IMG/VR virus record: IMGVR_UViG_3300023184_009676
Location: 1 to 64,000 of that record
Length of the DNA: 64,000 nucleotides
Source of the DNA: a virus
Reading direction: 5' to 3' (one strand)
The notes under the pieces are model-generated. The model was given only the letters and a program-made list of their open reading frames with translations. It had not been told where the DNA came from and made no database searches. Numbering within the stretch: position 1 is the stretch's first letter; each line of letters opens with the position of its first letter. Of this stretch, positions 6,101-34,003 are shown in pieces. A program made the position numbers and the translations under genes.

Positions 6101-7690
6101 TATGCGACCATTACCAATTTAGGTTTAACTGGGGCACAGATTACGAGTCTTAGCGGAACATTAACAGGGAACTATGTTTTAACAACGACTGCAACGGGTA
6201 TTAGTGGGGCATTGACTACATCCATTGCCTCTACGGGATCAAACTTACAGGGGCAGATCAATGGTTTAAGCGGTAAAGTAATATTTACTACTGGTACTCA
6301 AACGATAAGCGGAGTTGGCATCAACAGCATTTTATCTGTTCTTGCTCCTTCTGGATTAACTGGCGATTATTATAACGCACTTGATTCTGGAAGAAACTCC
6401 GTATTTAGAGTTGGCCCAATTACCAATGGAACAAGATTAGCCCTATTCCCTTCTGGAAATCCAACAGCCTGGGGCAAACTTTCAATTGAACCGGACCCTG
6501 CATATGCAGCAGGTTGGGCAACATTTTTGGGAGTATCTACCAATGGAAATGGTGGAAGAATATATCTTTGCGGTCTTGATACAGCGGGTGCTCCAATACA
6601 AGGTTTTACAGCCTTAAATCTTTCTTACGTTAAAACTGTTGAAAGTTTTCCTTCTAAATTATCCATGCAAGCCAATGACAATGGTTTGGGATATAATTCA
6701 GCAAGTGTAAGTGCAATTGCTGGTGGAATTGGTGATCTTGTTCTTGCTGTTGGTAGTGCTGGTGGATTTATTACAAACGCGCAGATTAATACAAACAATA
6801 CCGCCTCTTTATCTTTTAAATCTTATAACAATACTGGTCAGCAATATGTCGCTCAACATCCAGAAGCTTATACTTTTGATACAGCATATAATGTGCCTAG
6901 TTTGGGCGGTCTTCAACATACCCGTTGGAAAGTTAGTGGATCAAATATCATGTCGCTCAATCCTTCGGGAAGACTTGGTATCAGAACAGATTCACCAAAT
7001 TATCAATTGGAAGTAATTGGTTCAGGAAACTTCTCAAGTGGTCTTTATGTAAGTGGTTTTTCTGTTTTAACTGGGGAGCCTTTCGCAATTAGTTTGAGTG
7101 GATTATTTTCTACTGGCAATCAAACTGGAACATTAGCAATAAGCGGCACAAAAACATTTACCGGAGTTGTTAACTTTAATAGTGCTACATTTGTTAATCG
7201 CCCAACTGTTAATGGAACAGGAGTTTTATTAAGTGGCGAAGCCTCTTCCGCTACGGTATCAAACGTTGTTTATACAACCGGAAATAGCACTCAAACAATT
7301 AGTGGCAGTTTAACTGTTACTGGTCACTTCTCTGCCAATACAAAGTCTTTCTTAATTAATCATCCAACACAAGTTGGGAGAAAATTACAATATGGAAGTT
7401 TAGAATCACCTTATCATGGAGTGAGATTAACTGGCAAAGGTAAAATAAAAAATGGTATATGTCAGGTGGAATTACCAGAATATATCAAAGGATTAGTTCA
7501 TCAAGAAGAAGTTAATATTCAAATTACCAATATTAATCATGATAAAATTCTATATGTAAAGTGGATAGATATAAATAATAATAATTTTATTATTGGTTGT
7601 AATAATGATTTTAATAATAATGAATATGAATTTTATTGGAGTTTCACAGCTGTGAGAAAAGACGTGGAATATTTAAAGGTCGAATATTAA
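3173..7690 (+). CDS. Long fibre/spike protein with YadA-like beta-roll repeats and a C-terminal KSFxIxHP domain
   Basis: 1505 aa; GNVGIxTxxPxYxLDVNG fibre motifs, 21 SH(A/S)EG 14-aa repeats, TGQTG and STGSNLQGQI repeats. Confidence 0.75.
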   Translation: MSAFDSTIRLRQANQPEFSGYTVQVIQNYLSGNPPLPSTGVLSGVFYPLVTNPSGFVTSSQTGVFKTQTDLNSLYTQTLYYVGQNYYPNTNPSGYITGVDFSGGNFSGNLSGVVYTTGDQTISGIKTFINQSNFSGAVNVKNLTQITDILGLAGSISVGNASNNSKLLLTFDGTYDPSIYAIDDSYNYYPLNLKGSEIFLNQFDGGNVGINTPSLFYALDVNGTIGNSNGNLIIGSTNNPSPNGNGIQIIAGQAQSYPATQEGGGILINAGNDLNAGNGPGSITLNAGDANAFNGGDVNLNAGDSSDDYFEARIGGNVILTAGSAPSGNGSIQLLNGNVGIKTSSPNYTLDVNGSGNFRSGLYVSGIAVLTGVPTVTVTNAVYTTGNQSISGIKTFLTGIVVNGSLIQGNGNIASGLYSHAEGSATIASGQYSHAEGAQTITKGPYSHAEGVYSIASGYGSHAEGLTTISSGGYSHAEGWLAISSGDYSHAEGYGTFSVGLASHAEGSSNYARGATSHAEGGGTTAFGQSSHSEGTYTYASGISSHAEGNNTFSIGQNSHSEGISTNANGQASHAEGDSTIADGYVSHAEGVSTIANGTSSHAEGGYSIAYGEESHAEGDANQAIGFASHAEGTLTYANGENSHAEGNSTYANGLNSHSEGYLTYAYKDDSHSEGFVTIASGLYSHSEGLYTVTVGAGSHAEGAWTIASGDYQHVGGKYNLPNLTSLLIIGNGTSTGARSNILTIESGGLNVYGSGNFTGGLYINGVAVSTGASSSSAAGVSQLNTLTGNLSIVGVSGVSVYTSGASGIIISGNFNTGSFVTTGQTGNFVTTSQTGNANTLGGQSGSYYLNLANQTGSLAGTGAFITSGQTGVFVTTGQTGSFITSGQTGVFVTTGQTGVFATSTNLISTGSNLQGQITNLSGTLTGNYATSGFGASTYATITNLASTGSTLQGQITSLSGTLTGNYATSGFGASTYATITNLGLTGAQITSLSGTLTGNYVLTTTATGISGALTTSIASTGSNLQGQINGLSGKVIFTTGTQTISGVGINSILSVLAPSGLTGDYYNALDSGRNSVFRVGPITNGTRLALFPSGNPTAWGKLSIEPDPAYAAGWATFLGVSTNGNGGRIYLCGLDTAGAPIQGFTALNLSYVKTVESFPSKLSMQANDNGLGYNSASVSAIAGGIGDLVLAVGSAGGFITNAQINTNNTASLSFKSYNNTGQQYVAQHPEAYTFDTAYNVPSLGGLQHTRWKVSGSNIMSLNPSGRLGIRTDSPNYQLEVIGSGNFSSGLYVSGFSVLTGEPFAISLSGLFSTGNQTGTLAISGTKTFTGVVNFNSATFVNRPTVNGTGVLLSGEASSATVSNVVYTTGNSTQTISGSLTVTGHFSANTKSFLINHPTQVGRKLQYGSLESPYHGVRLTGKGKIKNGICQVELPEYIKGLVHQEEVNIQITNINHDKILYVKWIDINNNNFIIGCNNDFNNNEYEFYWSFTAVRKDVEYLKVEY
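4409..5290 (+). repeat. 21 tandem 42-bp (14-aa) coding repeats, xxxGxxSH(A/S)EGxxx
   Basis: Counted in the translation; the period matches left-handed beta-roll adhesin heads of the YadA type. Confidence 0.9.
5978..6120 (+). repeat. Exact 29-bp direct repeat (5978-6006 and 6092-6120) within a 114-bp coding duplication
   Basis: GCATCGACCTATGCGACCATTACCAATTT occurs twice; the peptide LSGTLTGNYATSGFGASTYATITNL is duplicated. Confidence 0.85.
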
Positions 7691-15772: not shown

Positions 15773-17512
15773 ATGGCTGATATTAACGTGACAGTTCAGG
15801 ATAATCCTCTTAGCATTACTGTTAATACCAATCCTAATGTTTTTATCTCTGCTGCAACTGCTGGAGTGCAAGGACCAGCAGGTTCACAAGGGGCTTCTGG
15901 AGTTGCAGGACAATTAATTAGTTTAAATAGTTTAACAGGGTATGTTGACATCACTGGACTTGGCAACATCTCTATAACAACTGGTAGCAGTTTAATTTAT
16001 GTTTCTGGAGCAACTGGAAACTTTTACCCAATCAACAATCCAAGCGGATATACTGCAACTGGATTTGTTACTGGAATAAGCGGTTATTTACAAAATCAAA
16101 TAACATCTTTAAGTGGGACACTAACTGGTAATTATGTTTTAAATTCTTCTACCGGCGTTTTTGCCACAAGTGCAAATTTGATTTCAACTGGCTCTAATCT
16201 TCAAAATCAGATTAATTCTTTGAGCGGAACCTTAAATGGAAATTACGTTTTAAAATCCGCCACAGGAGTATTTGTAACAACTGGACAAACTGGAGTTTTT
16301 GCTACTTCAGCCAATCTTATATCAACGGGTTCAAATTTACAAGGTCAAATCTCAAGCCTTAGTGGAACTTTAACTGGCAATTATATATTAACAAATACTG
16401 CAACAGGAATTAGCGGCACATTAGCCTCATCTATTGCATCAACTGGTTCAAACTTACAGGGGCAAATAAATTCGTTGAGTGGTACATTAACAGGAAATTA
16501 CGTCTTAAATTCTAGTACTGGAATATTTGTTACAACAGGTCAGACAGGCAGCTTTGTAACAACAAATCAAACTGGTAACTCAAATACTTTGGGTGGACAA
16601 TCAGGTTCATATTATTTAAATTATGCAAATATGACTGGTTCTATAAATGGGACTGGTTCATTTGTTACTGCAAGTCAAACTGGCCAATTTTATCCAAATT
16701 CAAATCCATCTGGATATATTACTGGATTTAATTCTGGCATTTACGTTCAAACTGGACAAACTGGAAACTTTATAACTACAAGTCAGACTGGACAATTTTA
16801 CGCCAATTCAAATCCTTCTGGTTATATTACGGGGGTAAATCTTTCAAGCTATATTACTACTGGACAAACTGGAGTTTTTGCCACTAGTGCTAATTTAATC
16901 CTAACGGGTTCAAATCTTCAAGGTCAAATATCTTCTTTAAGCGGAACTTTGACTGGTAATTATGTTTTAATTTCAACCTCAACAGGAATTAGTGGAATTT
17001 TATCCTCTTCTATTGCTTCAACAGGGTCGAATTTACAAGGGCAAATTAATTCATTAAGTGGAACTTTGACTGGAAATTATGTTTTAAAATCTTCTACTGG
17101 CGTATTTGTTACTACAGGTCAAACTGGGGCTTTTTATCCAAATAGTAATCCATCTGGTTTCATCTCTGGTTATCAAAATGCCCAAGGATGGATTGGTATC
17201 ACTCAATCCCCAACATATTTTAATATAGACTCGCCCAATATTGGCAACTCTTATACAACTTTTGGAATTGGAGCATCTCAAGATGTTTCAATTACTCCAA
17301 ATAGAAATTTATTATTAAGTCCTGTTGGCAAAGTGGGCATTCAAAACTCTAATCCAGTATATGATTTAGATGTAATAGGCTCGGGGAATTTTAGCAACAA
17401 TCTTTCTGTTTCTGGCAGCATTTATACTGCTAGTGGGTTCCAGTTGTATGATGCCGGATTGGGGCGCATAGTTACAATTACCTGCTTTAATGGAATTTTA
17501 AGTGTTGATTAG
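15773..17512 (+). CDS. Repetitive fibre protein
   Basis: Short collagen-like GVQGPAGSQGASG stretch; multiple NLISTGSNLQGQISSLSGTLTGNY and FYPNSNPSGYITG repeats shared with the 3173 fibre. Confidence 0.7.
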   Translation: MADINVTVQDNPLSITVNTNPNVFISAATAGVQGPAGSQGASGVAGQLISLNSLTGYVDITGLGNISITTGSSLIYVSGATGNFYPINNPSGYTATGFVTGISGYLQNQITSLSGTLTGNYVLNSSTGVFATSANLISTGSNLQNQINSLSGTLNGNYVLKSATGVFVTTGQTGVFATSANLISTGSNLQGQISSLSGTLTGNYILTNTATGISGTLASSIASTGSNLQGQINSLSGTLTGNYVLNSSTGIFVTTGQTGSFVTTNQTGNSNTLGGQSGSYYLNYANMTGSINGTGSFVTASQTGQFYPNSNPSGYITGFNSGIYVQTGQTGNFITTSQTGQFYANSNPSGYITGVNLSSYITTGQTGVFATSANLILTGSNLQGQISSLSGTLTGNYVLISTSTGISGILSSSIASTGSNLQGQINSLSGTLTGNYVLKSSTGVFVTTGQTGAFYPNSNPSGFISGYQNAQGWIGITQSPTYFNIDSPNIGNSYTTFGIGASQDVSITPNRNLLLSPVGKVGIQNSNPVYDLDVIGSGNFSNNLSVSGSIYTASGFQLYDAGLGRIVTITCFNGILSVD

Positions 17513-17524
17513 TTATAATAGATT

Positions 17525-18721
17525 ATGAAAAAATGGTTTTTAACAGTTTTTTTGGTGATGACGGCATTTTTATTAAATGCGCAATATAGCCCCATTACAA
17601 TCAATCGAAGTGGTACAGTAGTAAACACTAATGAAAGTATCATATTTTCAAATAATATTATTTTATCATCTGGCAATCTTTATATTACCAATCATGCTTA
17701 TGATGTATCCACAAGCCAGCTTGACCCGATTGCTAACGAATATGTCACGGCTCAATATGTCCAGTCTATAATGGCTGCTAACTTTGACCTATATTTCTCG
17801 ACTAATTCTTCAGGGATTACAGTAACAAATGGTACGGGAGCCTTGTTTATTCCCTCGACAATGGTGCTAGCAAATCCAATAACTGCCCAGACCAACACAA
17901 TCTCATCATTCACAAACGGGACGTATTTTACAGCTCGTCTCCAGACCAACTCCATCTCTTACATCCAGTCTGTTCCCATTAACCTTTATACCTACGTCCA
18001 AATCACTGGCGGTGGTTCAATTACAGCTCATCCTGAAATATGGCTTTACAATACCAACGGGACAATTGTTAAGCTTGGATATTCTTCGGACAATACTTAC
18101 AGTTCGGACATTGCGGTTCCCGTGAACTTGTCAATCGCCATGACCAATACAGCTTACCTTAATGTGAATCTAACTAACAGCCCGCAGCTACTCCTGCGTT
18201 GGTATGTCACCTCATCTCAAGGCAATCCAACGTGGAGATTCTTGATTGGTGCTGGCAATGCTTCGCACATTACTGTTGGAACTATTCCGTCAGCAAATCA
18301 AAATTATGTGGGCACGTTCACTGGCACTCATATTGGCGATGGAGCTGGTTTAACAAACATATACTCGACAAATATCGTGACACAGGCTGGAACATTGGCG
18401 GTGGCCAGTGCCGCAACGAACTATACGGTCAACCTGCTTCCTGGTGGAATGGCCAATCTGCAGCAGATCTATCTAGCCAATACCAACTGTTATATCACAT
18501 TTACGGGAACGAATGTTATTGACTCTCAGCGTGCAGTATTATTCAGAGGGTGGACGAATATAGTAGTTAGCACATTAACCTTTGCTCTTCCTACGTGGCG
18601 CACAAACTATACGACGGCAAACTACTTTGTGACTAATGGTCAATCTGCTGTATTCAACTTCTATAATACAGATACAACTGGATCTAACGTGATGGTGTCT
18701 GATGGAGGACGATGGAAATGA
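17525..18721 (+). CDS. Signal-peptide, Thr-Asn-rich beta protein
   Basis: MKKWFLTVFLVMTAFLLNA|QY; about 18 TN dipeptides; GDGAGLTNI fibre-like motif. Confidence 0.65.
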   Translation: MKKWFLTVFLVMTAFLLNAQYSPITINRSGTVVNTNESIIFSNNIILSSGNLYITNHAYDVSTSQLDPIANEYVTAQYVQSIMAANFDLYFSTNSSGITVTNGTGALFIPSTMVLANPITAQTNTISSFTNGTYFTARLQTNSISYIQSVPINLYTYVQITGGGSITAHPEIWLYNTNGTIVKLGYSSDNTYSSDIAVPVNLSIAMTNTAYLNVNLTNSPQLLLRWYVTSSQGNPTWRFLIGAGNASHITVGTIPSANQNYVGTFTGTHIGDGAGLTNIYSTNIVTQAGTLAVASAATNYTVNLLPGGMANLQQIYLANTNCYITFTGTNVIDSQRAVLFRGWTNIVVSTLTFALPTWRTNYTTANYFVTNGQSAVFNFYNTDTTGSNVMVSDGGRWK

Positions 18722-19545
18722 AGTGGGCTATTTCTATATTATTATTTATCTGTCTGACGGCGCGTTCACAGTTTGATTTTAGTGGACCAATGGTTGGTGC
18801 ATTTGGGGGCTCTGCTCCTGTTAGTCAGTATAATTTTAAACAGAACTTAGTAATGTATTTTGCATGGGAAGAAACAAATGCTGCTACTCTAAGAACGAAT
18901 TACAATTCTCCACCACTATATTCAATAACAAACTCTGCGGCAGCTACACCATGGGTACAAACTAATGGTATTGTATTGCAAGGCGGTTTTAATAAAAGTT
19001 CTACGGGGGGCTATAGAGGAAATGGGCCAGCTATAAACTGGACTAGCAATGATTTTACCATGACCGCATGGGTAAAATTAGTCACAGGTACATATACATC
19101 ACAAGGTATATTTGCCTATGGCGATAATACTGGCGGTGGAAACGGTGTAAGCATTGCATATCGCGCTTCAACTGATGCGTCTCCCAGAACTAAAAGTATC
19201 ATGGCTACAGCATACATGACAAATGCTTCTACATATGTTCAAATCTTGTCTGGATTAAATTCAATGACCGAAAATACGTGGACACATGTTGCATTTATTA
19301 GAAGAAACTTGACGAATTATCAGATATGGTTAAATGGTGTTGTAAAATTTTCGTCCAATTATAACGCTGTTATTGGTAATGGCTATACGGCTGGTGCAAC
19401 TAATGTGGAAATAGGTATGATCAATGCGGGTTATCCGATTCAAGGAGCGGTTGACGAATTTGGTGCGTGGAGCAGAGCATTATCAACTAATGAAGTTCTT
19501 CAGCTATATAATTCTGGCGCAGGTTGGGGATATACAAATTTTTAA
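18712..19545 (+). CDS. Signal-peptide LamG-like lectin domain protein (start 18712 or 18718)
   Basis: MKWAISILLFICLTARS|QF; FTMTAWVK, WTHVAF, IWLNG and GAVDEFGAWSRALSTNEVLQLYN motifs. Confidence 0.7.
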   Translation: MEMKWAISILLFICLTARSQFDFSGPMVGAFGGSAPVSQYNFKQNLVMYFAWEETNAATLRTNYNSPPLYSITNSAAATPWVQTNGIVLQGGFNKSSTGGYRGNGPAINWTSNDFTMTAWVKLVTGTYTSQGIFAYGDNTGGGNGVSIAYRASTDASPRTKSIMATAYMTNASTYVQILSGLNSMTENTWTHVAFIRRNLTNYQIWLNGVVKFSSNYNAVIGNGYTAGATNVEIGMINAGYPIQGAVDEFGAWSRALSTNEVLQLYNSGAGWGYTNF

Positions 19546-19548
19546 TTT

Positions 19549-19851
19549 ATGAAAAAACTAATATTAAGTTTATTACTATTGTCTTATTGTTTAATTTATT
19601 CACAGGAAACTACAAATCTTCCTGCGTTTACAAATCCAATTATTTTAAGACCAGGCCAAATGGGAGACATCATCAATTATGTTCAAAGTCTTGGGGCAGG
19701 CACAAATTCAATTTATGCCATTACTTCTACCAATTTGCAATGGGTAAATGTTATCAGAAATGTGGATGGAACAAATGATTACTTTCAGGTGTCTGCTATT
19801 GTAAATGTACCAATTACTAATGTTGTAAACTCTTCAACCAATAACCCATAA
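19549..19851 (+). CDS. Small signal-peptide, Thr-Asn-rich protein
   Basis: MKKLILSLLLLSYCLIYS|QE; 7 TN dipeptides in 100 aa. Confidence 0.6.
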   Translation: MKKLILSLLLLSYCLIYSQETTNLPAFTNPIILRPGQMGDIINYVQSLGAGTNSIYAITSTNLQWVNVIRNVDGTNDYFQVSAIVNVPITNVVNSSTNNP

Positions 19852-19892
19852 TAAATAAAACAACCACGTCCTAATACATGGGTCTTATAAAA

Positions 19893-23876: not shown

Positions 23877-24779
23877 ATGGAAAAAGTAAAATATCTTTAT
23901 GAATCAACCGTTGAAAAGATTGTTGAAGAAAAAGTGACTGAAAAAAGACAGGAAAATGGTCAAGAAATCGAGGTCTCGAAGACTGTTAAAACTAAAAAGC
24001 CTTTTAAAATTGCGGTACTAAAGCCCGATAGAAAAAAGTTTAAAGAGGCAGAAATTTTCTACGCCAAGACGCTTTCTCATTACTTAAAAGAAGGTCTTCT
24101 TCCATATTCACTTGTGTCAAAAAGATACATGAATGATGGCGGTCCATTGAGCGATGATGAAAAGAAATTTATCAATACCCTCCGAGAAAAGTATGCCGAA
24201 ATTCAAGAAGAGTATTTTTCTATGCCTTCAGAATTAACCGAAGCACAAGGCAAAAGAAGAGCAGAGATTCTTTTGGAAATGACTGATATCAATAAGATTC
24301 TTAATGAAATCCAAAATAATTATGCCGAATTGTTTGACAATACCGCAGAATCCAAGAGTAAAAATGATACCATCGAATGGTGGATTTTAAATTTAAGCTG
24401 CGCTGATGAAGATGGAAAAGGTGTCAAACTTTTTTATGGAGAAGAAGATTTCTCTTCTAAAATGAAAAAACTAGAAGATAATGAAGCCAAAGATGACCCC
24501 TTCCTTAACGAAGTTATAAAAAAACTTTCTTATTTTATTAGCTTTTGGTATGCCAGTAAATCGCAATTAAAAGAAGAAGATTTTAAATCGGCAGAAGAGC
24601 ATTACAAACAAAATGTTACAACTTATCTTCAAGATGAAGATATTGCTCCTGCTACCACAGAAGCAAAGCCCGACGAAACAAAACCAGTAGAACCCGTTGC
24701 TCCCACCGCACCAGCTGTTGAACCCCCTGCTGTAGCTGTCGTTGAAACTCCTATTCAAGTTGCCTCAACGCAACCCTGA
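23877..24779 (+). CDS. Putative tail assembly chaperone
   Basis: Acidic helical protein between the tail tube gene and the TMP; Pro/Ala-rich C-terminal tail. Confidence 0.45.
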   Translation: MEKVKYLYESTVEKIVEEKVTEKRQENGQEIEVSKTVKTKKPFKIAVLKPDRKKFKEAEIFYAKTLSHYLKEGLLPYSLVSKRYMNDGGPLSDDEKKFINTLREKYAEIQEEYFSMPSELTEAQGKRRAEILLEMTDINKILNEIQNNYAELFDNTAESKSKNDTIEWWILNLSCADEDGKGVKLFYGEEDFSSKMKKLEDNEAKDDPFLNEVIKKLSYFISFWYASKSQLKEEDFKSAEEHYKQNVTTYLQDEDIAPATTEAKPDETKPVEPVAPTAPAVEPPAVAVVETPIQVASTQP

Positions 24780-24785
24780 TAAAAT

Positions 24786-25649
24786 GTGGAATCGTTTAGA
24801 GAATATAAAGTTTCAGAAATAGATGAATTAAAACTCATCTATTATGAAATTATTCGCGGTAGTAGTTTTGAGCCAGATATTAATCTGTATGTAAAACATT
24901 TTTCAGAATTAGAATCATTTTTTATTTTGAAAAAAAGAACAGAATTGTTTCATTTTTATTCTAAAGAAGGTGTCCCACACGAATTAGAATTGCTAAAAAA
25001 TGCCCTAGCTACAGAAGAATGGTCGGAGGAAAAAGAAAATAAAATTCTTGAATTCAAATATTTAATTTCTGATAACGAAAAAAATATCCATAATATTATT
25101 CCCGAGCAACGCGCCCCCATTCAAAAAATCATTGAAAATACAAAAAAACAGCTCAGTGAGATACTTTTTGATAGAAAAGGCATATTAGGCAGAAGCATAG
25201 AAGATCTTATTGATGATGATATAGAAGATTATCTATCATATCTTTCTTTTTTTAAAGATGAGCCTTGTACAATTCCCTGCGTATCTGATTATGAAGAGTT
25301 TCAAAAGTTAGAAATGTCTGAAATTAATAAATTTAATACCAGTTTGAGTAAGACGTATAAAAAGTTTTCAGAAGAAAATATTAAAAAAATAGCCTGTTTA
25401 CCCTTCTTTTTAAATAAATTTTCCTATTCAAAAGAAAGAATTGATGGATTTTTAGGTAAACCAATTAATTCATTGACCAATAACCAAACCTCTTTATTTT
25501 CACTAGGAGTAAGGAATTTAAACGTTTTATCCCACGCAAAGGGTAGTCCCCCCGATATATCTCTTGAAGCAAAACCCTTGGATGTTTTAAAATGGTATGA
25601 TATACAGCATTCCATTATGATTGCCAAGCAAAATCAATCTGATTCTTAA
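24786..25649 (+). CDS. Putative second tail assembly chaperone (GTG start)
   Basis: Acidic helical protein immediately before the TMP. Confidence 0.4.
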   Translation: MESFREYKVSEIDELKLIYYEIIRGSSFEPDINLYVKHFSELESFFILKKRTELFHFYSKEGVPHELELLKNALATEEWSEEKENKILEFKYLISDNEKNIHNIIPEQRAPIQKIIENTKKQLSEILFDRKGILGRSIEDLIDDDIEDYLSYLSFFKDEPCTIPCVSDYEEFQKLEMSEINKFNTSLSKTYKKFSEENIKKIACLPFFLNKFSYSKERIDGFLGKPINSLTNNQTSLFSLGVRNLNVLSHAKGSPPDISLEAKPLDVLKWYDIQHSIMIAKQNQSDS

Positions 25650-25705: not shown

Positions 25706-28700
25706 ATGGAAGATAATTTAGGCCAGGTAAAGGTATTAATAACTCCAGTAATTGATCAATCAAGACTTGATTCTGGTATAACGGATGCTGCTGAAAAAAT
25801 GGCAGCACGTTTTGACAAAGCCTTTACTGGTAGAGGTCAACCACTTGGAAGAATAACTGGCAAAGTTACAGAGTTTGAAAAGTCAATGGAAGCGGCAAAT
25901 GCCCGCGTTATTGCTTTCGGTGCTTCTGCTGGTGGTATTTATCTTGTTAAATCTGCATTTGATAAACTTGTTTCTTCAACAATTGATGTAGAAAAAAATA
26001 TCACAAATATTAACATGATTTTGGGCTTAGGAAGTTCCAGCCTAAAAACTTTTTCCGCAGAAATGTTCAAAGCTGCCTCTGCTTCTGGACAAACATTTGA
26101 GACTGCTAGTAAAGTTGCTCTTGAATTTGCTCGTCACGGTGTAAGCGCGGCAGAAACCTCAAAAAGAATGAGTTCTGCAATGCAGTTAATGAGAATTTCT
26201 GGTTTAGACGCCGGAGAATCAGTTGATGTATTGACTGCTTCAATTAACTCTTTTAATAAAGAGGCGTTGACTTCTGCTGATGTTGTAAACAGACTCACTG
26301 CTGTTGATACAAAATTCGCTGTTAGTGCTCAGGACTTAGCAAAAGCAATTGAACGCGTGGGCTCCACCGCTGCTGAAGCTGGGATACAGTTTAATCAATT
26401 ATTAGGCTTCGTTACTGCCGCCCAGACACAAACTTCTCGTGGTGGTGCAGTTATTGGTAACGCTTTTAAATCAATCTTTACAAGATTAGCTCGTCCAGAA
26501 GTGCTTTCTGATTTGCAAGCAGTTGGAGTAACGACAAAAGATGCTGCTGGGCAAATTCTACCGATGGTCCAAATCATGAAAAATTTGGCCTCCCAATATA
26601 GTCATCTTGGTGCAGCGCAAAAATCATTCATATCTGAAACCGTTGGCGGTGTTTATCAAGTTAACATTCTTAAGGCGTCTTTGGCAGATTTAGGAAATGG
26701 AATTACTATTTTTGATAAAGTTGCCGCAACCGCCGCAAATTCTACAGGAGTTGTTGATAAAAGAATGGCTCAATTAAATGAGACAATTTCTTCTAAATTA
26801 AATGTTTCTGCAAATCAATTGACTGAATTATTTTCTAACTTGGGTAATGTTTCTTTTGGCGGAAACATGAAAAAGGGTCTTGATAGCGTAAATGGTCAAT
26901 TAGACTTTGTAAAACGTCAATTGGCTGATTTTTCAGAAGATGATACTTTTGGACAATCATTTGGAAAAACAATTGGCAGAGGATTGGCTGATGCATTTGG
27001 TAATATTTTATCTGGACCAGGACTTCAAATTGGCGCGATGTTATTGACCAAGGTTGTTCTTGGTCTTGGTAAATTTGCTATTGACGCAGGCAAAAACATG
27101 ATGGGGATAACTGATGCTTTAAAAGGTCAACAAGGTCTTTTGTCCAGCGTGGGTAATTTTTTACAAAATCATAAAACTTTATTGGCGGAGCTTGAGTCTG
27201 GTCAAATAAGCATAAATAAAGTGACTGAACTTTATTTAGCAGACCTCGGAAAAGAAGAAGCGCATTTCGCTGCAATGGCCAGATACCAAAGAGAAATCGC
27301 TAGTTTGGCTCGTCCGTCTTTAAGTGCGGACGCATTTGCACATTCTAAAGGAGCTGGTGCTTCGGCGGGGTATGTTCCCGCTTTTGCACAAGAAGAAAGG
27401 GACGCCAGAGCAAAGGGGGCTTCTCCTAATGTTAAGGCTATGTTTGGTCCAAATATCCCTGGAGTCGGACCCACAATTATTAATAGTGAAGAAGTTGTAA
27501 GACAAAATTATGGTGGATCTGGAAAACCAGCAATCCTTCGTACTTATGGACCTCCTGGACCAACAAAACTTTCAGGAGGACTTGTTCCAAATTTTGCAAA
27601 TATTTTAGGAACAATATCTGTCGAAGGAACAAGATACCAAAAGCCTGATGGAGAAATTCAAAATTTAGATTACCCATTTATAGATTTATTATCAATGATT
27701 CAGGGGCAATATGGCAGACAAATTCTTCCAATCTCTGCTAAATCTGGATACGAAGCTGTAGAAAAAGTTGGCAGTCCAGCAAAGTGGAATAAGAAAGGAT
27801 ATAACAAGCCTGGGGCAATTGCAAATTATGTTCACGAATTATCTCGCCCAGAAATGTTTATACAAGAAAGTCCTGAGCGTTTAAGGCACATAAGATCAAG
27901 TAAAGAAGTTTTTGAAAATCGTTTTATAAAACAAATTGGTGCATATAACACCCAAGGTTTTGAAAATTTAGAATTTTTAAATCCAGTTGTATTTGCGGCA
28001 AAAGAGGAGGGCCAAGAAATATATCACCAGATGCAAAAACAACCATTGTTGTCGTCTGCCGACGCATCTCCCGCAATAAAATCAGCAAGAAATTTGCCTT
28101 GGTATAGAGGAGGAAAATCTTTTTCTCCTACAACTATGGTTAAAGGCGAAAATATTATCGGCGGCCCCAAAACATATGGTCCATGGTATGAAGATTATCT
28201 TCAAAAATTTTTAGGAGCGCATCCAGATATTCTTTCGTTAATTGGCCCAGGAATGACCACGGAAAGCCAAGGTCAATTAAATCAATTATTAAGAAATTTT
28301 TCCAAAGACTATCAAGGAGAAGAAAGATATTTTGAAGAAAAATACATAAAGAAATCTGGTGGAGTTGTTCCAAATTTTGCTTTAACGAATTTAGGGAAAA
28401 ATCAAAAAATTACAATAAGTCAATCGCAAATTCAATCTAAAATTAACGAAGCAAAAAAAACGGGAGATTTTACAAAAGCCGAATCGTATCTTTATGAGAG
28501 CCTAACAGATAAAGACCCAAACATTTCCTCTTCTGATGTATTCGGTAAATTAACAAAAGAAGAAAGAGAAGCGTATAGAGCCGGTACTTCTTCAAGCGAT
28601 AAATCAAATCCCGCCTGGGCGCAATGGGATGTTATAAAAACGGGGCAAAAAGCCGCCGATCCAGCAGTTGGAAATTATAAGTCTTATTTTTCAACAGATT

Positions 28701-31700
28701 TAAATTCTTTATCAAAAATAAATGAAAATTCTTTGGAATTAAAAGCGGCTTTAAAACCTATTTCGGAAAAATACGGGATGGATTTAAGTTTTAAAACTCC
28801 TGGGACATTAACTGCCGCGACGAAACACAATGATTCTTTAGTGGTTCATTACACAAACCCAAAAGCGGCCTCAGAAGTTGAATCTACAATACAAAAATTT
28901 GCTTCATCTAAGGGAATTTCATTTGGGTCAAGGGCTTATACTAGAGGCGTTGATCTTCGTGATCCTAAAGGAAAGGAACAGATTAGCTATGGAAATGTAT
29001 TAGCGAAGCAAATGACTTATGATTTAGCCACTGGAAAATCATTAAATGAGACTTTATCAAGTAGAGTTAAAAATGCGTTTGCAAGTGGATATGCTCCAAA
29101 TTTTGGAAAAATAATTAGTAAAGGCGGTTCTGACCTTGATCTTTCTGAAGATGGAACATTAAAAATACATTATCTTTCTTCGTCTATTTCCAATAACGTT
29201 TTTCACGAACTTCTTGAATCATTAAACGCTGGAGAAATAACAAAAATAGATGGAGGAACAATTGTCGGCCCCAAAGTTCCAAATTTAATTCATCATTTAT
29301 CAAAGCTTTTACCAAAGTTAAGAAAAAATAATCCAAAAATTCCAAGCTCTATTCCAATAACTGGTTATTTTACCCCTAACGATTTATATCGTAACGCTTT
29401 CAAAAATAGGGGTGGAATGGTGCCTCACAGAATATTGGATTCAGTGCATCAAAAAAAATTAGAGGAGCTTGCGTCTAGCCAAGGATTGAGAATTGTAAAA
29501 GCTGGAAGATTTACTCGTTTCGTAAAAAAAGAAGAAAAAGATAATTATAAAACCGTTGACGAAGTTAATATTCCTGGACAAAAATATCCAAGCAGTGGTC
29601 TTTTTACGGAAGAGGATATACAAGGCATATTCCCTCAAGCGACATTTACTACAAAAATACAAAGAGATTTATCTTATAGTAGCGCAACTAGTAGAAAAGA
29701 CCTTACGCAATTAAGAGCCGCTGTAAAAGTAATGGCTGGCCCAAATAAACAAAACATAGAACAAAGATTTAATAGGGAATACATTGAATTATCAAAAGTT
29801 TATGCTCGTGGATTGGCTTCGGGATATAATCCTATTGCCGATGCATTTAGCAGGGAGAATTCTCCAACTGCAAAACTTGGTTTTTCTTCAAGAGTAAAAA
29901 GTCCTGGAAATCCTGGGGGAGCACTAGTTTATGATTCTTCTTATCAGAATGGTCCAGCAGATGCAATTAGACAACATCTTATGTCTGGAAGACCAGATAT
30001 AGTAAATGCTGGAACGCCTAATGAAAAAATTCCAAACTTTGCAATGGATATGTCTGCCGTAGGAAGTATTGCTCTTGGAGCCATGCAAGGTATAGGATTA
30101 TCAGATTGGACAGCTAAAAAGATGCCTGCAGTTTCTTATGGTTTTGATAAAATGCAGCATGCAGTTGGTACTGCTACAGAACAGTTGTTGTCAATGCAAA
30201 AAAGGTTGGAAGCAGGTCAAAATGTAAAATATGGTGGTCAATCATATGCACCGGACGAAGGGCTAAAATTGGCCGCAGAATTTAAAAAAGTTTTTGATCA
30301 AAAATTTAAAGGACAAGGTTTTCAATTTGGTACATCTCAAGAAGAATTAAAATCTCAACACGAATCATACATTCCGTATGCCCAAAAAATGCAAGAAAGA
30401 GAGCAGTCAATTCGCTCTAAAGGATTTGCCGCAAGCATGATTGCTCCCGCAGTTGGTGGGGTTGTTTCTCAAGGGCTTCAAGCCGGTGGATATCTTAATG
30501 CTTCAAAAGCTGTATCAGCATTAACAGATAGCGCCACTATGGCAGCGCAATTCATGATAGCTTTTCCAAATAAAATTGGGACAGCCCTTTCTGGCGCAGT
30601 AATGGCTTCTGGAGTTTCTAATGCTCTTAATGAAATGGTTTATAAAACTGGAACCCTAGAGAGATCATTTGATTTAATAAGTACAAAATTGGAAAAAACT
30701 GCTTCAGCAGTTAATACAGTTAATCAAAGTTATGATGCTCTTGATTCTGCATTAAGATCTGGATCGGTAAGCACTGGTCAGTTAGCGGCTCTCCAAAGAA
30801 ATTTAGCAAAATCTTATGCGGAATTAGGCGGAGTAAAAGGTGGTGGAGCAATTGTCGCCGCAATGAAAGGCGCAGGCACAGCCGAAGCAAGAGCAACGGC
30901 TGGGGCAGAAGCAGTTGATACATTACAAAATGAAAAAAATAGAAGCGGATTTGAATTACAATTTGCAAAACAACAACAAGCTCGTTCTGAATTTGGAGTC
31001 AATCTTGGAAATGGTGCCCAGGGAAATTTTACCCCAAGAAATAAGCAAGAACAACTTGAAAATATAGAATTAATGCGTAGTGCTGCATCAAATATTCAAG
31101 GGGAATTCATTACCGCTCAAAGTAAAAAAGGTGGAAATGCGGAGTTAGTACAAAGAATGGCTACGGGAGTAGTTTCCAGATCAGATGTTGAAACAATTAA
31201 AAAAGGAGCAACAGAAACAGAATCCTATAAAAAATTATCAGAGAAAGACGCCAAAGTAGTAATGGAGGAATTAAATAGACAACTCCAAGAAATCGCTATA
31301 CCAGATGATCAAATTGGTGCATACAAAGAAAGTCTTGCAAAATTAAAAAGCCTCCAAATACAAGAAGTCTATTTGCGCCAAAGCTACAATCAGTCTCTGC
31401 AAAATAAATTGCAAAGCGGTTCCATTGCTTCTTCAATGGCTAATACCAAAAATATATATGGTATTCAGAGCAAGGGGATGCAAGAAGGTTATGAATATTC
31501 CAAAAAAGAAAAGGGATTGGGATTAGAAGCTTTATATACTGGCGAACAGTCAATGATTTTAAAGAGAGGAAAGGAAGAGCAGTCTCATATTGCAGAACAA
31601 ACTGGTCTTAAAGCTCAAGCTGTTAAAGCTCAAGGAGGCGCAGATATTGGTTCTTTAATTAGTGGGCAAATTAGTCAATTTATATCTTCATCTTTAGGAA

Positions 31701-34003
31701 CGGCAGAAGTTTCTGGAAAAACTGGTACTGTACAGCCAAGTGAAGCATTGAGCAAAGCAACAGAATATCTTGGTACCAGACAAAAAGAATTTTCCGGAGC
31801 AGGTGGGGCAGAAAAGTTATTTGATTTGCAAAAAAACGCTGCCTCTCCAGACGAATTTGCCAAAAGTTATCTTGGAGAATTTAAAGACTTTCAAGCTGGA
31901 ACAGGAGGAAAAGGCACAGAGGCAGATTACAAAACTTTACTCAGTCAAATTTCAACAATGTCCGCAGGAGATGTAAATGAAAAAATGTACAAAACTCTCC
32001 TTGATATTCAAAAGGTCGGTGAAGAAGGCAACACTCAGCAAAAAGAAAGCTCTGATGCAATGGTTGCCGCTATTGCCGCTTCTAAATTTAAAGAGGCTGC
32101 CGGTCAATTAGGCGGAGTAGGAATTTTAGATAGAAATACTTTTCGTCAGCAACGTAGAGAAATAAGAAGAGCAGAATCTAGACTGCGCTCAAGAGATGCT
32201 GGAGTAAGAGGCGAAGGGGCCGCAAGATTATTGGCTGCAATTCCCGAAAGCCAAAGAGATTATAATGACCCATATATTAAGAAATTGTATGATACCGCCT
32301 CTGGAGGTATAGCAAATAGACAAGCTCGTACCACGCAAGGCAGCGGCATTGGTAGATTTATGGCTTCTGGTGCAGAAGCTGGCCAAGCTGCAATTTTTGA
32401 GAAATTTAAAGGCACAAATCTACCTATTCCAAAATCAGTACAAGAGGGATTGGAAAAAATGAAAAAGGGGCAAGGCGTAAACCCAGAATTCGACGCCGCT
32501 TTAAAAAAATCCGCAGAATCTCTTAAGTTATCTACGGATGCCGTTGATGCTTTTGCGACTAAAATTAACTCGTTTAATTCTGCAATTGATCTTGGTAAAA
32601 AAGCTGGAGCCATTGAGCAAAACAAAGTTGAACAAGATCAAGTTAAAGCAGAAATGGAGAAACAAAAGGGTGAACCACCCGCAGGCACTGCAAAATCTAG
32701 CGAAGCAATTCTTCCAATAACAGATAGTCTTATTACAAGATATGGTCAAGATACCGTTCGTCTTTTGACTGGTATTTTGGGCGCCATGATTGCTTTGCGC
32801 GTTCTTGGTGGCAAGGGAGCAATTGGTGAAGTTGGCGCAGGAATTGCTGCTGGTGGAAGAAAAGTCATGGGTGGTATAAAAAGCATTGGTAGAGTTTTTG
32901 GTATTGGCGCGGCGGCAGAAGGAGCTGTTGCGGCAGAGGGCGCTATTGCAACAGGGGCTGCCACAGCGGCAAAGGGGACAATTAGAGTAGATCTAGCTAC
33001 TCAACAGGCAAAAGCCTTGGAAAGACAGATGGCTCATATCCCAGAATCTTTTGGGGGTCCAAAAGCTGCAGGTCTATCTTTCGGGGAAGTTTTGCCAGGA
33101 GAATTAACTCATCTTGAACCAACTTCACAACTTAAACCACAATTTAAACCTGGGGTTCCCGTAACTGATGCAGAAATAAATTCTGCTTTAAATGCAGGAA
33201 GAGAATCTGGAAGACAAGCGGCGAGCACAAGTAGAGCCATTGCCGCCACGGAACAGGCAGCAAAGACCGCCAGCGAAGCTTCTAAAGCTGGTAAAGTATT
33301 AGGTATGGGAGCAAAAGTTGGAAAATTCGTAGGAGGTAGTCCATTTTTAGGAGATTTAGTAGATGTTGCTTCTATTGGTGCAGGAGCCCTCTCTGGAGGA
33401 GGAAACGCATCTGAAACAATGGGCGATATGATGTTAGAATCCGCGCAAGAAAGAGTAAATAAACCTGGTGCGCACATGGGCGGCGACTTTTTAGCAGGCA
33501 TGAGCGTAAGAGGAATGACAAGTTCTTTCTTAGCTAAAGATGTTAATAAAATGCAAGAGGGCGAAGGTGGCATAAATAGATTAGAAAATGCCATGAAAAT
33601 GAAAGAATTGATAAAATCTCAGGGTGGCAGCGTCAGAAACTCTGAATTATTTAGCCCAGATTTTAGAAAAAATTTAACAGATCCAGAATGGCAGAAATCT
33701 CATGGTCTTGCTCCTCATTTAGACAAATCTGGTGGCGTTGTTGCTCCAACTGGTGCGGCAATCCCAACTGGAGATGCTGCTGCAAAAGCCAATCCAAAAT
33801 CAGAAGCTTCTAAAACCGAGGCAAAGCCACAAGAACCACAAAAGGTTGATGTCAAAATGAGTGCAGAGCCATTGCATGTAAATGTTACTGTTACTGACGA
33901 AAACGGCAAAAAAATACAAGAAATGCAGCAACAAATTGTTCAGTTCAAGCAAAAATTAGAAGAAGTAACTGGAAATAAAACTCCAGCAACTGTAAAAGCA
34001 TAA
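25706..34003 (+). CDS. Tape measure protein with an internal cargo-domain array
   Basis: 2765 aa. N-terminal TP901-type TMP core (AVDTKFAVSAQDLAKAIERVGSTAAEAGI...RGGAVIGNAFKSIFTRL); Ala/Gly-rich helical remainder; follows chaperone genes. Confidence 0.88.
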   Translation: MEDNLGQVKVLITPVIDQSRLDSGITDAAEKMAARFDKAFTGRGQPLGRITGKVTEFEKSMEAANARVIAFGASAGGIYLVKSAFDKLVSSTIDVEKNITNINMILGLGSSSLKTFSAEMFKAASASGQTFETASKVALEFARHGVSAAETSKRMSSAMQLMRISGLDAGESVDVLTASINSFNKEALTSADVVNRLTAVDTKFAVSAQDLAKAIERVGSTAAEAGIQFNQLLGFVTAAQTQTSRGGAVIGNAFKSIFTRLARPEVLSDLQAVGVTTKDAAGQILPMVQIMKNLASQYSHLGAAQKSFISETVGGVYQVNILKASLADLGNGITIFDKVAATAANSTGVVDKRMAQLNETISSKLNVSANQLTELFSNLGNVSFGGNMKKGLDSVNGQLDFVKRQLADFSEDDTFGQSFGKTIGRGLADAFGNILSGPGLQIGAMLLTKVVLGLGKFAIDAGKNMMGITDALKGQQGLLSSVGNFLQNHKTLLAELESGQISINKVTELYLADLGKEEAHFAAMARYQREIASLARPSLSADAFAHSKGAGASAGYVPAFAQEERDARAKGASPNVKAMFGPNIPGVGPTIINSEEVVRQNYGGSGKPAILRTYGPPGPTKLSGGLVPNFANILGTISVEGTRYQKPDGEIQNLDYPFIDLLSMIQGQYGRQILPISAKSGYEAVEKVGSPAKWNKKGYNKPGAIANYVHELSRPEMFIQESPERLRHIRSSKEVFENRFIKQIGAYNTQGFENLEFLNPVVFAAKEEGQEIYHQMQKQPLLSSADASPAIKSARNLPWYRGGKSFSPTTMVKGENIIGGPKTYGPWYEDYLQKFLGAHPDILSLIGPGMTTESQGQLNQLLRNFSKDYQGEERYFEEKYIKKSGGVVPNFALTNLGKNQKITISQSQIQSKINEAKKTGDFTKAESYLYESLTDKDPNISSSDVFGKLTKEEREAYRAGTSSSDKSNPAWAQWDVIKTGQKAADPAVGNYKSYFSTDLNSLSKINENSLELKAALKPISEKYGMDLSFKTPGTLTAATKHNDSLVVHYTNPKAASEVESTIQKFASSKGISFGSRAYTRGVDLRDPKGKEQISYGNVLAKQMTYDLATGKSLNETLSSRVKNAFASGYAPNFGKIISKGGSDLDLSEDGTLKIHYLSSSISNNVFHELLESLNAGEITKIDGGTIVGPKVPNLIHHLSKLLPKLRKNNPKIPSSIPITGYFTPNDLYRNAFKNRGGMVPHRILDSVHQKKLEELASSQGLRIVKAGRFTRFVKKEEKDNYKTVDEVNIPGQKYPSSGLFTEEDIQGIFPQATFTTKIQRDLSYSSATSRKDLTQLRAAVKVMAGPNKQNIEQRFNREYIELSKVYARGLASGYNPIADAFSRENSPTAKLGFSSRVKSPGNPGGALVYDSSYQNGPADAIRQHLMSGRPDIVNAGTPNEKIPNFAMDMSAVGSIALGAMQGIGLSDWTAKKMPAVSYGFDKMQHAVGTATEQLLSMQKRLEAGQNVKYGGQSYAPDEGLKLAAEFKKVFDQKFKGQGFQFGTSQEELKSQHESYIPYAQKMQEREQSIRSKGFAASMIAPAVGGVVSQGLQAGGYLNASKAVSALTDSATMAAQFMIAFPNKIGTALSGAVMASGVSNALNEMVYKTGTLERSFDLISTKLEKTASAVNTVNQSYDALDSALRSGSVSTGQLAALQRNLAKSYAELGGVKGGGAIVAAMKGAGTAEARATAGAEAVDTLQNEKNRSGFELQFAKQQQARSEFGVNLGNGAQGNFTPRNKQEQLENIELMRSAASNIQGEFITAQSKKGGNAELVQRMATGVVSRSDVETIKKGATETESYKKLSEKDAKVVMEELNRQLQEIAIPDDQIGAYKESLAKLKSLQIQEVYLRQSYNQSLQNKLQSGSIASSMANTKNIYGIQSKGMQEGYEYSKKEKGLGLEALYTGEQSMILKRGKEEQSHIAEQTGLKAQAVKAQGGADIGSLISGQISQFISSSLGTAEVSGKTGTVQPSEALSKATEYLGTRQKEFSGAGGAEKLFDLQKNAASPDEFAKSYLGEFKDFQAGTGGKGTEADYKTLLSQISTMSAGDVNEKMYKTLLDIQKVGEEGNTQQKESSDAMVAAIAASKFKEAAGQLGGVGILDRNTFRQQRREIRRAESRLRSRDAGVRGEGAARLLAAIPESQRDYNDPYIKKLYDTASGGIANRQARTTQGSGIGRFMASGAEAGQAAIFEKFKGTNLPIPKSVQEGLEKMKKGQGVNPEFDAALKKSAESLKLSTDAVDAFATKINSFNSAIDLGKKAGAIEQNKVEQDQVKAEMEKQKGEPPAGTAKSSEAILPITDSLITRYGQDTVRLLTGILGAMIALRVLGGKGAIGEVGAGIAAGGRKVMGGIKSIGRVFGIGAAAEGAVAAEGAIATGAATAAKGTIRVDLATQQAKALERQMAHIPESFGGPKAAGLSFGEVLPGELTHLEPTSQLKPQFKPGVPVTDAEINSALNAGRESGRQAASTSRAIAATEQAAKTASEASKAGKVLGMGAKVGKFVGGSPFLGDLVDVASIGAGALSGGGNASETMGDMMLESAQERVNKPGAHMGGDFLAGMSVRGMTSSFLAKDVNKMQEGEGGINRLENAMKMKELIKSQGGSVRNSELFSPDFRKNLTDPEWQKSHGLAPHLDKSGGVVAPTGAAIPTGDAAAKANPKSEASKTEAKPQEPQKVDVKMSAEPLHVNVTVTDENGKKIQEMQQQIVQFKQKLEEVTGNKTPATVKA
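27362..30043 (+). repeat. Dispersed GxxPNF(A) linker repeats in the TMP
   Basis: SAGYVPAFA 27362, SGGLVPNFA 27572, SGGVVPNFA 28355, ASGYAPNFG 29081, ASGYNPIA 29816, KIPNFA 30026. Confidence 0.8.

Follow-up and report, generated by a model that had tools for sequence, protein, structure and literature searches.

What is known so far is that phages inject a few ready-made proteins, and that single enzymes can be fused to the tape measure protein (TMP). T5 pb2 and the TMP of mycobacteriophage TM4, with its Rpf motif, carry embedded cell-wall enzymes or motifs, and lambda gpH (processed to H*) and SPP1 gp18 are TMPs that undergo proteolysis. In Thermus phage P23-45, gp96 is a 5002-aa TMP fused to the virion RNA polymerase (PMC10770324). 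Polyvalent proteins of phages and conjugative elements are mosaic, and it is proposed that they arrive together with the invading DNA and that proteolysis sometimes frees them (Iyer et al. 2017, PMC5512222). The TMP-related, Sle1-type effectors of actinobacterial contractile injection systems (CIS), reported in 2026, have exchangeable functional domains and are tube-loaded (PMC13277306). That TMPs and polyvalent proteins carry extra domains is, then, already established. Here we describe the TMP of an uncultured, probably long-tailed phage, represented by a 97-kb IMG/VR provirus record (IMGVR_UViG_3300023184_009676) of an estimated 62% completeness; the window is the first 64 kb of this record (positions 1 to 64,000). 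Between a conserved N-terminal module (N-module) and its C-terminal half (C-half), this TMP contains a bay of exchangeable, independent modules, hereafter cassettes, that is fenced by copies of a short peptide motif.

TMPs of the T5 pb2 and TM4 type bear single, envelope-directed activities in fixed places, in contrast to the exchangeable array, cytoplasm-type predicted folds and family-wide delimiter of the window TMP. The likeness to P23-45 gp96 would be that of a functional globular enzyme within the TMP of a long-tailed phage, for which host entry along with the TMP and early action are proposed. In gp96, however, the enzyme is single, fixed and N-terminal, neither recurring copies of a delimiter peptide nor an array of cassettes nor their exchange between relatives has been described, and there is no sequence relation to the window block (the cultured-phage search gave no match). 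Polyvalent proteins likewise combine multiple unrelated domains in one mosaic polypeptide (three cassettes here; 55 cassette families in 76 distinct TMPs), and the window TMP falls within the range of 2-15 conflict-type domains by which they are recognized. In contrast, they are not TMPs ('tape measure' occurs 0 times in PMC5512222), no common short delimiter motif is described for them, and embedded MPTase peptidase domains, none of which was found here, are credited with their release; nor did any other of the polyvalent domains (DdrB-ParB, ArdC-N and others) give a Pfam match in the window TMP. Sle1 resembles the window TMP in its TMP-derived scaffold with diverse exchangeable domains in a tail-like tube, but it is a cargo of actinobacterial CIS that has a single functional domain, at its C-terminus, and a partner, Sle2, rather than a phage TMP, and it does not use the motif. 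None of P23-45 gp96, the polyvalent proteins and the Sle1-type effectors has a delimiter peptide that recurs along the protein and at which modules are swapped. The original prediction for this locus had likened the array to polymorphic toxins, a comparison that holds only loosely, as the variable modules are internal, not C-terminal, and the C-terminal 1300 aa are conserved TMP. Added here are a natural deletion of one cassette, tests of synonymous codon use and of motif exclusivity, and a cassette with a predicted HopA1/LanY-like fold.

Exchange of motif-fenced modules among related tape measure proteins

Judged from its sequence, the gene product is a TP901-type TMP. PF10145 (PhageMin_Tail, TP901-type), the sole Pfam domain in the protein, scored 90.7 bits against a gathering cut-off of 33.2 bits, and nine PHROG tape-measure families were matched (best E 3.9e-43). 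As summarized in Table 1, the bay begins and ends with two units, A and B, that resemble each other (31% over 88 aa) and enclose three cassettes. The six motif copies, at aa 553, 623, 884, 1126, 1371 and 1441, lie exactly where the original prediction had placed them. Its further claims about the layout were also borne out: the inner intervals are 261, 242 and 245 aa long and mutually unrelated, the three linker DNA 20-mers that it quoted are correct (16-19/20 bases in common), and the composition of the block sets it apart from the remaining TMP, with Ala/Gly depleted and Pro and aromatic residues enriched over aa 600-1400. The three cassettes have no detectable mutual similarity, and the idea that they are diverged copies of one another was rejected on this ground.

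To place the window TMP in its family, IMG/VR was scanned with the N-module. At least 373 viral contigs encode relatives, with the N-module kept at 35-45% identity across the 373 contigs; 80 loci were fetched (designated L followed by a number), and a protein search contributed further TMPs, including P0003 and P0006. A word-indexed search returned five long TMPs in which portions of the block recur, all of them studded with G[FY][IV]PNFA. The family follows a common plan, consisting of the N-module (about 546 aa), a class-A unit (about 82 aa), cassettes, a class-B unit (about 75 aa) and the C-half, which is helical and hydrophobic, with the motif at every module boundary. The number of cassettes per TMP ranges from 0 to at least 8, most of the cassette families are singletons, and no member, cassette-free ones included, is without a motif-like copy where N-module and C-half meet. 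One divergent cassette of 233-425 aa is common, being present in 48/76 TMPs; it is absent from the window TMP, where the three uncommon cassettes replace it.

One relative, L002 (IMGVR_UViG_3300037189_024986), is collinear with window 19877-43979 (~24 kb) at 89-91% nucleotide (nt) identity, and the sole gap in the alignment, window 28380-29094, is cassette 2. Protein identity between their TMPs is 93% for aa 1-891 and 88% for aa 1128-2763. The L002 junction, ...KYIKKSGG-HI-PNFG-KIISKGG..., is a hybrid of two motif copies, with a left half derived from the copy that precedes cassette 2 and a right half from the copy that follows it, which places the crossover inside GGxxPNF. The two phages form a near-isogenic pair, one cassette apart, and as such represent a natural experiment.

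Four pairs of relatives displayed similar behavior. The TMPs of L077 and L080 are 99.7% identical up to aa 981, four residues past a motif, and then continue into different, unrelated cassettes. L066 and L080 differ by one 230-aa cassette between two motifs, L030 and L070 by one 111-aa cassette between two motifs, and in L043 and L058 an identity of 87% extends as far as the motif at aa 622 and gives way to divergence beyond it. Cassettes also change position: a copy of cassette 2, 48% identical, occupies aa 1891-2164 of a 4641-aa TMP, and homologues of cassette 3 stand at other positions in five further TMPs. Taken together, these results demonstrate that recombination at the motif adds, removes and swaps whole modules among relatives. 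The original prediction had proposed interchangeable modules, and had named homologous TMPs with fixed domains and no turnover as the contrary outcome; instead, the number, identity and order of modules varied among related TMPs while the flanks were conserved and the break points fell at the motif, turnover being evident in L002 as well as in the four pairs.

Two further arrangements were seen in the family. Three tandem, diverged copies of one ~205-aa cassette, each motif-fenced, are present in L077 (L077:12899-15346), where L080 has a single 768-aa block instead. In P0003 (4641 aa) the motif bounds nine or more modules, among them an Excalibur calcium-binding domain (aa 2590-2624).

Table 1. 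Tape measure protein gene of the window, its parts and its two upstream neighbors (positions in the window; aa, residues of the TMP).
Feature	Position	Strand	Details	Basis
Two conserved genes directly upstream of TMP, chaperone position	23877..25649	+	23877-24779; 24786-25649	Context only
TMP gene	25706..34003	+	2765 aa	ORF list, translation; PF10145 and PHROG TMP families
PF10145 core	26072..26638	+	aa 123-311, within conserved N-module (aa 1 to about 546)	Pfam
Unit A	27362..27598	+	aa 553-631; start SAGYVPAFA (aa 553-561; 27362-27388; degenerate motif), end SGGLVPNFA (aa 623-631; 27572-27598)	Aligns with 20 class-A units
Cassette 1	27599..28381	+	aa 632-892; end motif SGGVVPNFA (aa 884-892; 28355-28381)	Orphan domain
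Cassette 2	28382..29107	+	aa 893-1134; end motif ASGYAPNFG (aa 1126-1134; 29081-29107)	HopA1/LanY/OspF-like predicted fold
Cassette 3	29108..29815	+	aa 1135-1370	Alpha/beta module; homologues in other TMPs
Unit B	29816..30043	+	aa 1371-1446; start ASGYNPIA (aa 1371-1378; 29816-29839), end KIPNFA (aa 1441-1446; 30026-30043)	Class-B units of 33 TMPs
C-terminal half	30044..34003	+	Ala/Gly-rich	Composition, hydropathy; 88% identity to L002

A conserved peptide in the linkers between modules

We measured how far the motif departs from chance. In the window TMP, G..PNF[AG] occurs in 3 copies compared to 0.004 expected per protein shuffle, and PNF[AG] in 4 copies compared to 0.038. Within the window the motif is confined to the TMP, and across the family the TMP reading frames contained 181 copies, whereas all six frames of 991 kb of flanks contained none. 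A total of 185 strict copies were counted in the 76 distinct TMPs (1837 to 4641 aa). Their logo, [AS]-x-G-[FYHL]-[IV]-P-N-F-A, is nearly invariant, with G, P and N at 100%, F at 94% and A at 95%, and it stops abruptly, conservation being absent beyond the final Ala. A full-text literature search for the motif found no paper.

At the DNA level the motif is far less uniform. Among 177 copies there were 120 distinct 21-nt versions, with codon use close to the background of the genes. The motif codons thus vary synonymously across the family and selection therefore acts on the peptide, for which reason a DNA-only recombination signal was rejected. The linkers had been proposed to act as recombination anchors; this is correct insofar as swaps occur at the motif, and incorrect insofar as a primarily DNA-level signal was meant, the peptide being kept and the codons free.

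The same observations bear on the possibility that the cassettes are neutral or selfish insertions in a length-flexible protein, with the motif providing in-frame microhomology for recombination. The coincidence of break points with the motif, the bases shared by the window copies and the preponderance of singleton cassette families without known function are all compatible with such a scenario. It nevertheless accounts poorly for a peptide that is kept while its codons vary like the background, for the retention in cassette 2 of all seven invariant residues of its family, and for the one motif retained even in cassette-free TMPs. We consider it highly improbable, and the least probable of the alternatives discussed here.

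As modeled with AlphaFold2 (AF2) for cassette 3 together with unit B, the motif region had a pLDDT of 31-37 and unit B one of about 50-58, and the motif region is accordingly predicted to behave like a flexible linker. Because the motif is nearly invariant, lies in such linkers between unrelated folds and is conserved only to its last residue, we infer that it is a short linear motif read by a partner in trans. Cutting by local self-catalysis seems unlikely because the folds upstream of the motif differ. A motif read in trans would most likely be a processing site, and otherwise a docking site. Its presence at the junction of N-module and C-half in every member would make it fundamental to how TMPs of this family work, and a site that the cassettes would exploit.

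Were it a docking site, the motif could be a peptide bound by tail assembly chaperones, the tail tube or the TMP trimer, restoring register after non-helical inserts; the cassettes would then stay attached and act at the envelope or tune tail length. Such a role is consistent with the occurrence of the motif in cassette-free members, with its restriction to the TMP, as expected for a TMP-specific partner, and with the failure to find a protease. It is also consistent with the presence, at the chaperone position, of two unannotated genes in 78 (23877-24779) and 80 (24786-25649) of 81 related loci. On the other hand, motif spacing across the family is irregular, from 45 to about 1000 aa, which does not suggest a periodic ruler contact; the halt of conservation after the Ala also fits a protease site read from the non-prime side; and cassettes of the staphylococcal nuclease (SNase), GNAT-like and HopA1-like types suggest cytoplasmic targets. 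We regard docking with uncut cassettes as rather unlikely, though as the strongest of the alternatives, ahead of the late-expression polyprotein discussed below, with neutral insertions last.

In many members, not all, the last motif is followed by a hydrophobic Gly/Ala-rich stretch of ~20 aa, which is MDMSAVGSIALGAMQGIGL in the window (30038-30094) and EFGGADAFILIAAFGTLSTAL in L066. This stretch would be the new N-terminus if the motif were cut, which is suggestive, albeit not universal. By hydropathy it is one of four moderately hydrophobic segments in the C-half region of the window TMP, the others being 30422-30478, 32756-32812 and 32894-32950.

The predicted fold of cassette 2

A HMMER search of 1.84 billion representatives found about 60 free-standing homologues of cassette 2, 230-300 aa in length, that aligned with it over nearly their full length. 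The start of a free-standing homologue aligns with the first residues of the cassette, and the motif is absent from the free-standing homologues. The AF2 model, with the homologue alignment as input, is a compact alpha/beta structure (pLDDT 89, pTM 0.86). Its best match in the Protein Data Bank (PDB) was HopA1 (4rsx; Z 10.4, rmsd 4.3, 193/234 residues aligned), followed by LxmY, the lyase subunit of a class V lanthipeptide dehydratase (9dk3_B; Z 10.0), lyase domains of lanthipeptide synthetases (Z about 7) and the phosphothreonine lyases SpvC, VirA and OspF (Z about 6); related lyases occupied ranks 1-17 of the fold matches. In predicted fold, cassette 2 is thus akin to HopA1 (4rsx/4rsw), LanY (LxmY 9dk1-3; CaoY, PMC9486802) and OspF/SpvC, from which it differs in lacking a sequence match to the Pfam HopA1 model. 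These findings indicate that cassette 2 is a whole captured protein with, according to the model, a HopA1/LanY/OspF-like fold of the phospho-Ser/Thr-lyase type. At least one module of the bay is, on the same structural prediction, a complete protein of effector-type fold.

The invariant residues of the family are W971, Y994, K1030, D1043, R1076, D1083 and S1094, all seven of which are present in cassette 2. Beta-elimination by LanY/OspF enzymes uses Lys, Arg or Lys, and Tyr (SpvC K136, CaoY K219; PMC9486802). The residue types of the invariant K1030, R1076 and Y994 fit those of the lyases, whereas their spacing differs from that in CaoY and SpvC. Neither BFVD nor a PDB profile search returned anything for cassette 2.

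A whole captured protein, whose start is shared with free-standing homologues, would also be compatible with the TMP being a vehicle for late expression, a polyprotein from which the cassettes are cut before or during tail assembly, to act in the producing cell or be discarded rather than injected. Units flanked by the motif would permit clean excision, and folded 240-aa domains fit a tail tube poorly. A separate gene would nonetheless do the same without risk to an essential structural protein, and the persistence of the bay in hundreds of phages suggests selection for linkage to the TMP itself. Moreover, P23-45 demonstrates that a TMP-fused enzyme can be virion-borne (PMC10770324). We judge this late polyprotein improbable.

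The intervals had been described as globular, which applies well to cassette 2 and partially to cassette 3, whose AF2 model was of low confidence (pLDDT about 60, with the N-terminal 100 aa at 70-84). Homologues of cassette 3 were found only inside other TMPs, and the only homologue of cassette 1 is in the 90%-identical L002. Elsewhere in the family, cassettes matched SNase (two cases) and, weakly, HATPase_c and GNAT. The SNase domain stands straight after the first motif in P0006 (2622 aa) and in L056. The common cassette (L058:11777-12640 and 43 other loci, 15-35% identity) has a C-terminal pattern, G..FE ... FD ... D-x-K (G180, E184, D210, D235, K237), that recalls PD-(D/E)XK nucleases; it had no Pfam or PDB sequence match.

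Free-standing homologues of cassette 2 were found in neither viral contigs nor genome contigs. A metagenome scan yielded 4 loci with such a homologue, and no other neighboring gene in them matched any cassette. In one, L093:1-12696, taken from contig Ga0080013_1000006 (292,595 bp, packed with short open reading frames), the homologue at 6001-6702 lies near a LAGLIDADG endonuclease fused to a MerR helix-turn-helix (HTH) domain and near a 544-aa HATPase_c_3 protein. This contig may be a jumbo phage.

Proposed delivery of the cassettes and the tail-module setting

We favor, with slightly better than even confidence, a reading in which the motif of the fenced bay is recognized in trans and the cassettes are carried in the virion tail for delivery at infection. 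The cassettes would ride with the TMP into the tail, exit with it at infection and be released as the TMP leaves the tail. Ready-made proteins would in this way reach the host envelope or cytoplasm before or together with the DNA. A more specific version, which we put forward tentatively and think doubtful, is that the motif is a dedicated release or docking signal that makes the TMP a programmable scaffold for protein delivery, whereby whatever protein stands between two of its copies would enter the tail, leave it before the DNA and become free inside the host; the cargo here would be a phospho-Ser/Thr lyase able to erase host kinase signaling irreversibly, for example that of a kinase-based anti-phage defence.

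Several points weigh against delivery. As with everything beyond the architecture, motif cutting, cassette packaging and injection are inferred rather than observed. The tail tube lumen, at about 4 nm, would leave little room for a folded 240-aa domain in triplicate; storage of the cassettes in a partly unfolded or staggered state, or outside the tube, would be needed. No protease candidate was recognized near the TMP, the two upstream families being without Pfam, PHROG or PDB match, and, unlike substrates of prohead proteases, no other virion protein carried the motif, whether among the window open reading frames (ORFs) or in the family flanks. A tblastn search of 50,697 cultured-phage records gave no match to the insert block, the class-A units or the class-B units; with the N-module, it recovered only distant TMP cores at ≤27% identity. 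Regarding the cargo, the phospho-lyase reading of cassette 2 is a lead from its predicted fold, not a family membership: the Pfam HopA1 (PF17914) and OspF-family models had no match in 34 members of the cassette 2 family, even at E up to 10. For cassette 3 there was no fold match above noise (best PDB Z 5.1), and the ESM Atlas held nothing usable for cassettes 1 or 3.

If delivery does take place, a family-wide, motif-delimited slot would be a general and evolvable route by which long-tailed phages deliver pre-made effectors. Most of the 55 cassette families are unannotated and would, if this is true, be a source of new anti-host and anti-defence domains. The pairing of a cargo with a 9-residue tag would constitute a natural design rule that could be tried in engineering phage-delivered proteins.

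The TMP gene lies between the chaperone-position genes and the distal tail genes and is the longest gene of the tail module. Its neighboring structural genes had no Pfam or PHROG match, and the phage is therefore taken to be very divergent. The upstream genes include seven conserved families, and their order is kept in 67-80/81 loci. The two genes at the chaperone position encode 300 and 287 aa, unusually long for tail assembly chaperones. Readthrough or frameshifting between them was rejected, as no consistent frame relation was seen. A search of genome contigs for the host returned only contigs of metagenome-assembled genomes (MAGs) of mixed taxa (Flavobacteriales, Proteobacteria, Halobacteriovorax). 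Upstream of the tail genes, window 15773-19876 and L002:1-2217 share no nt similarity, collinearity beginning only at 19877; from the sequence comparison, the block of fibre and secreted-protein genes that precedes the tail genes seems to be exchangeable as well.

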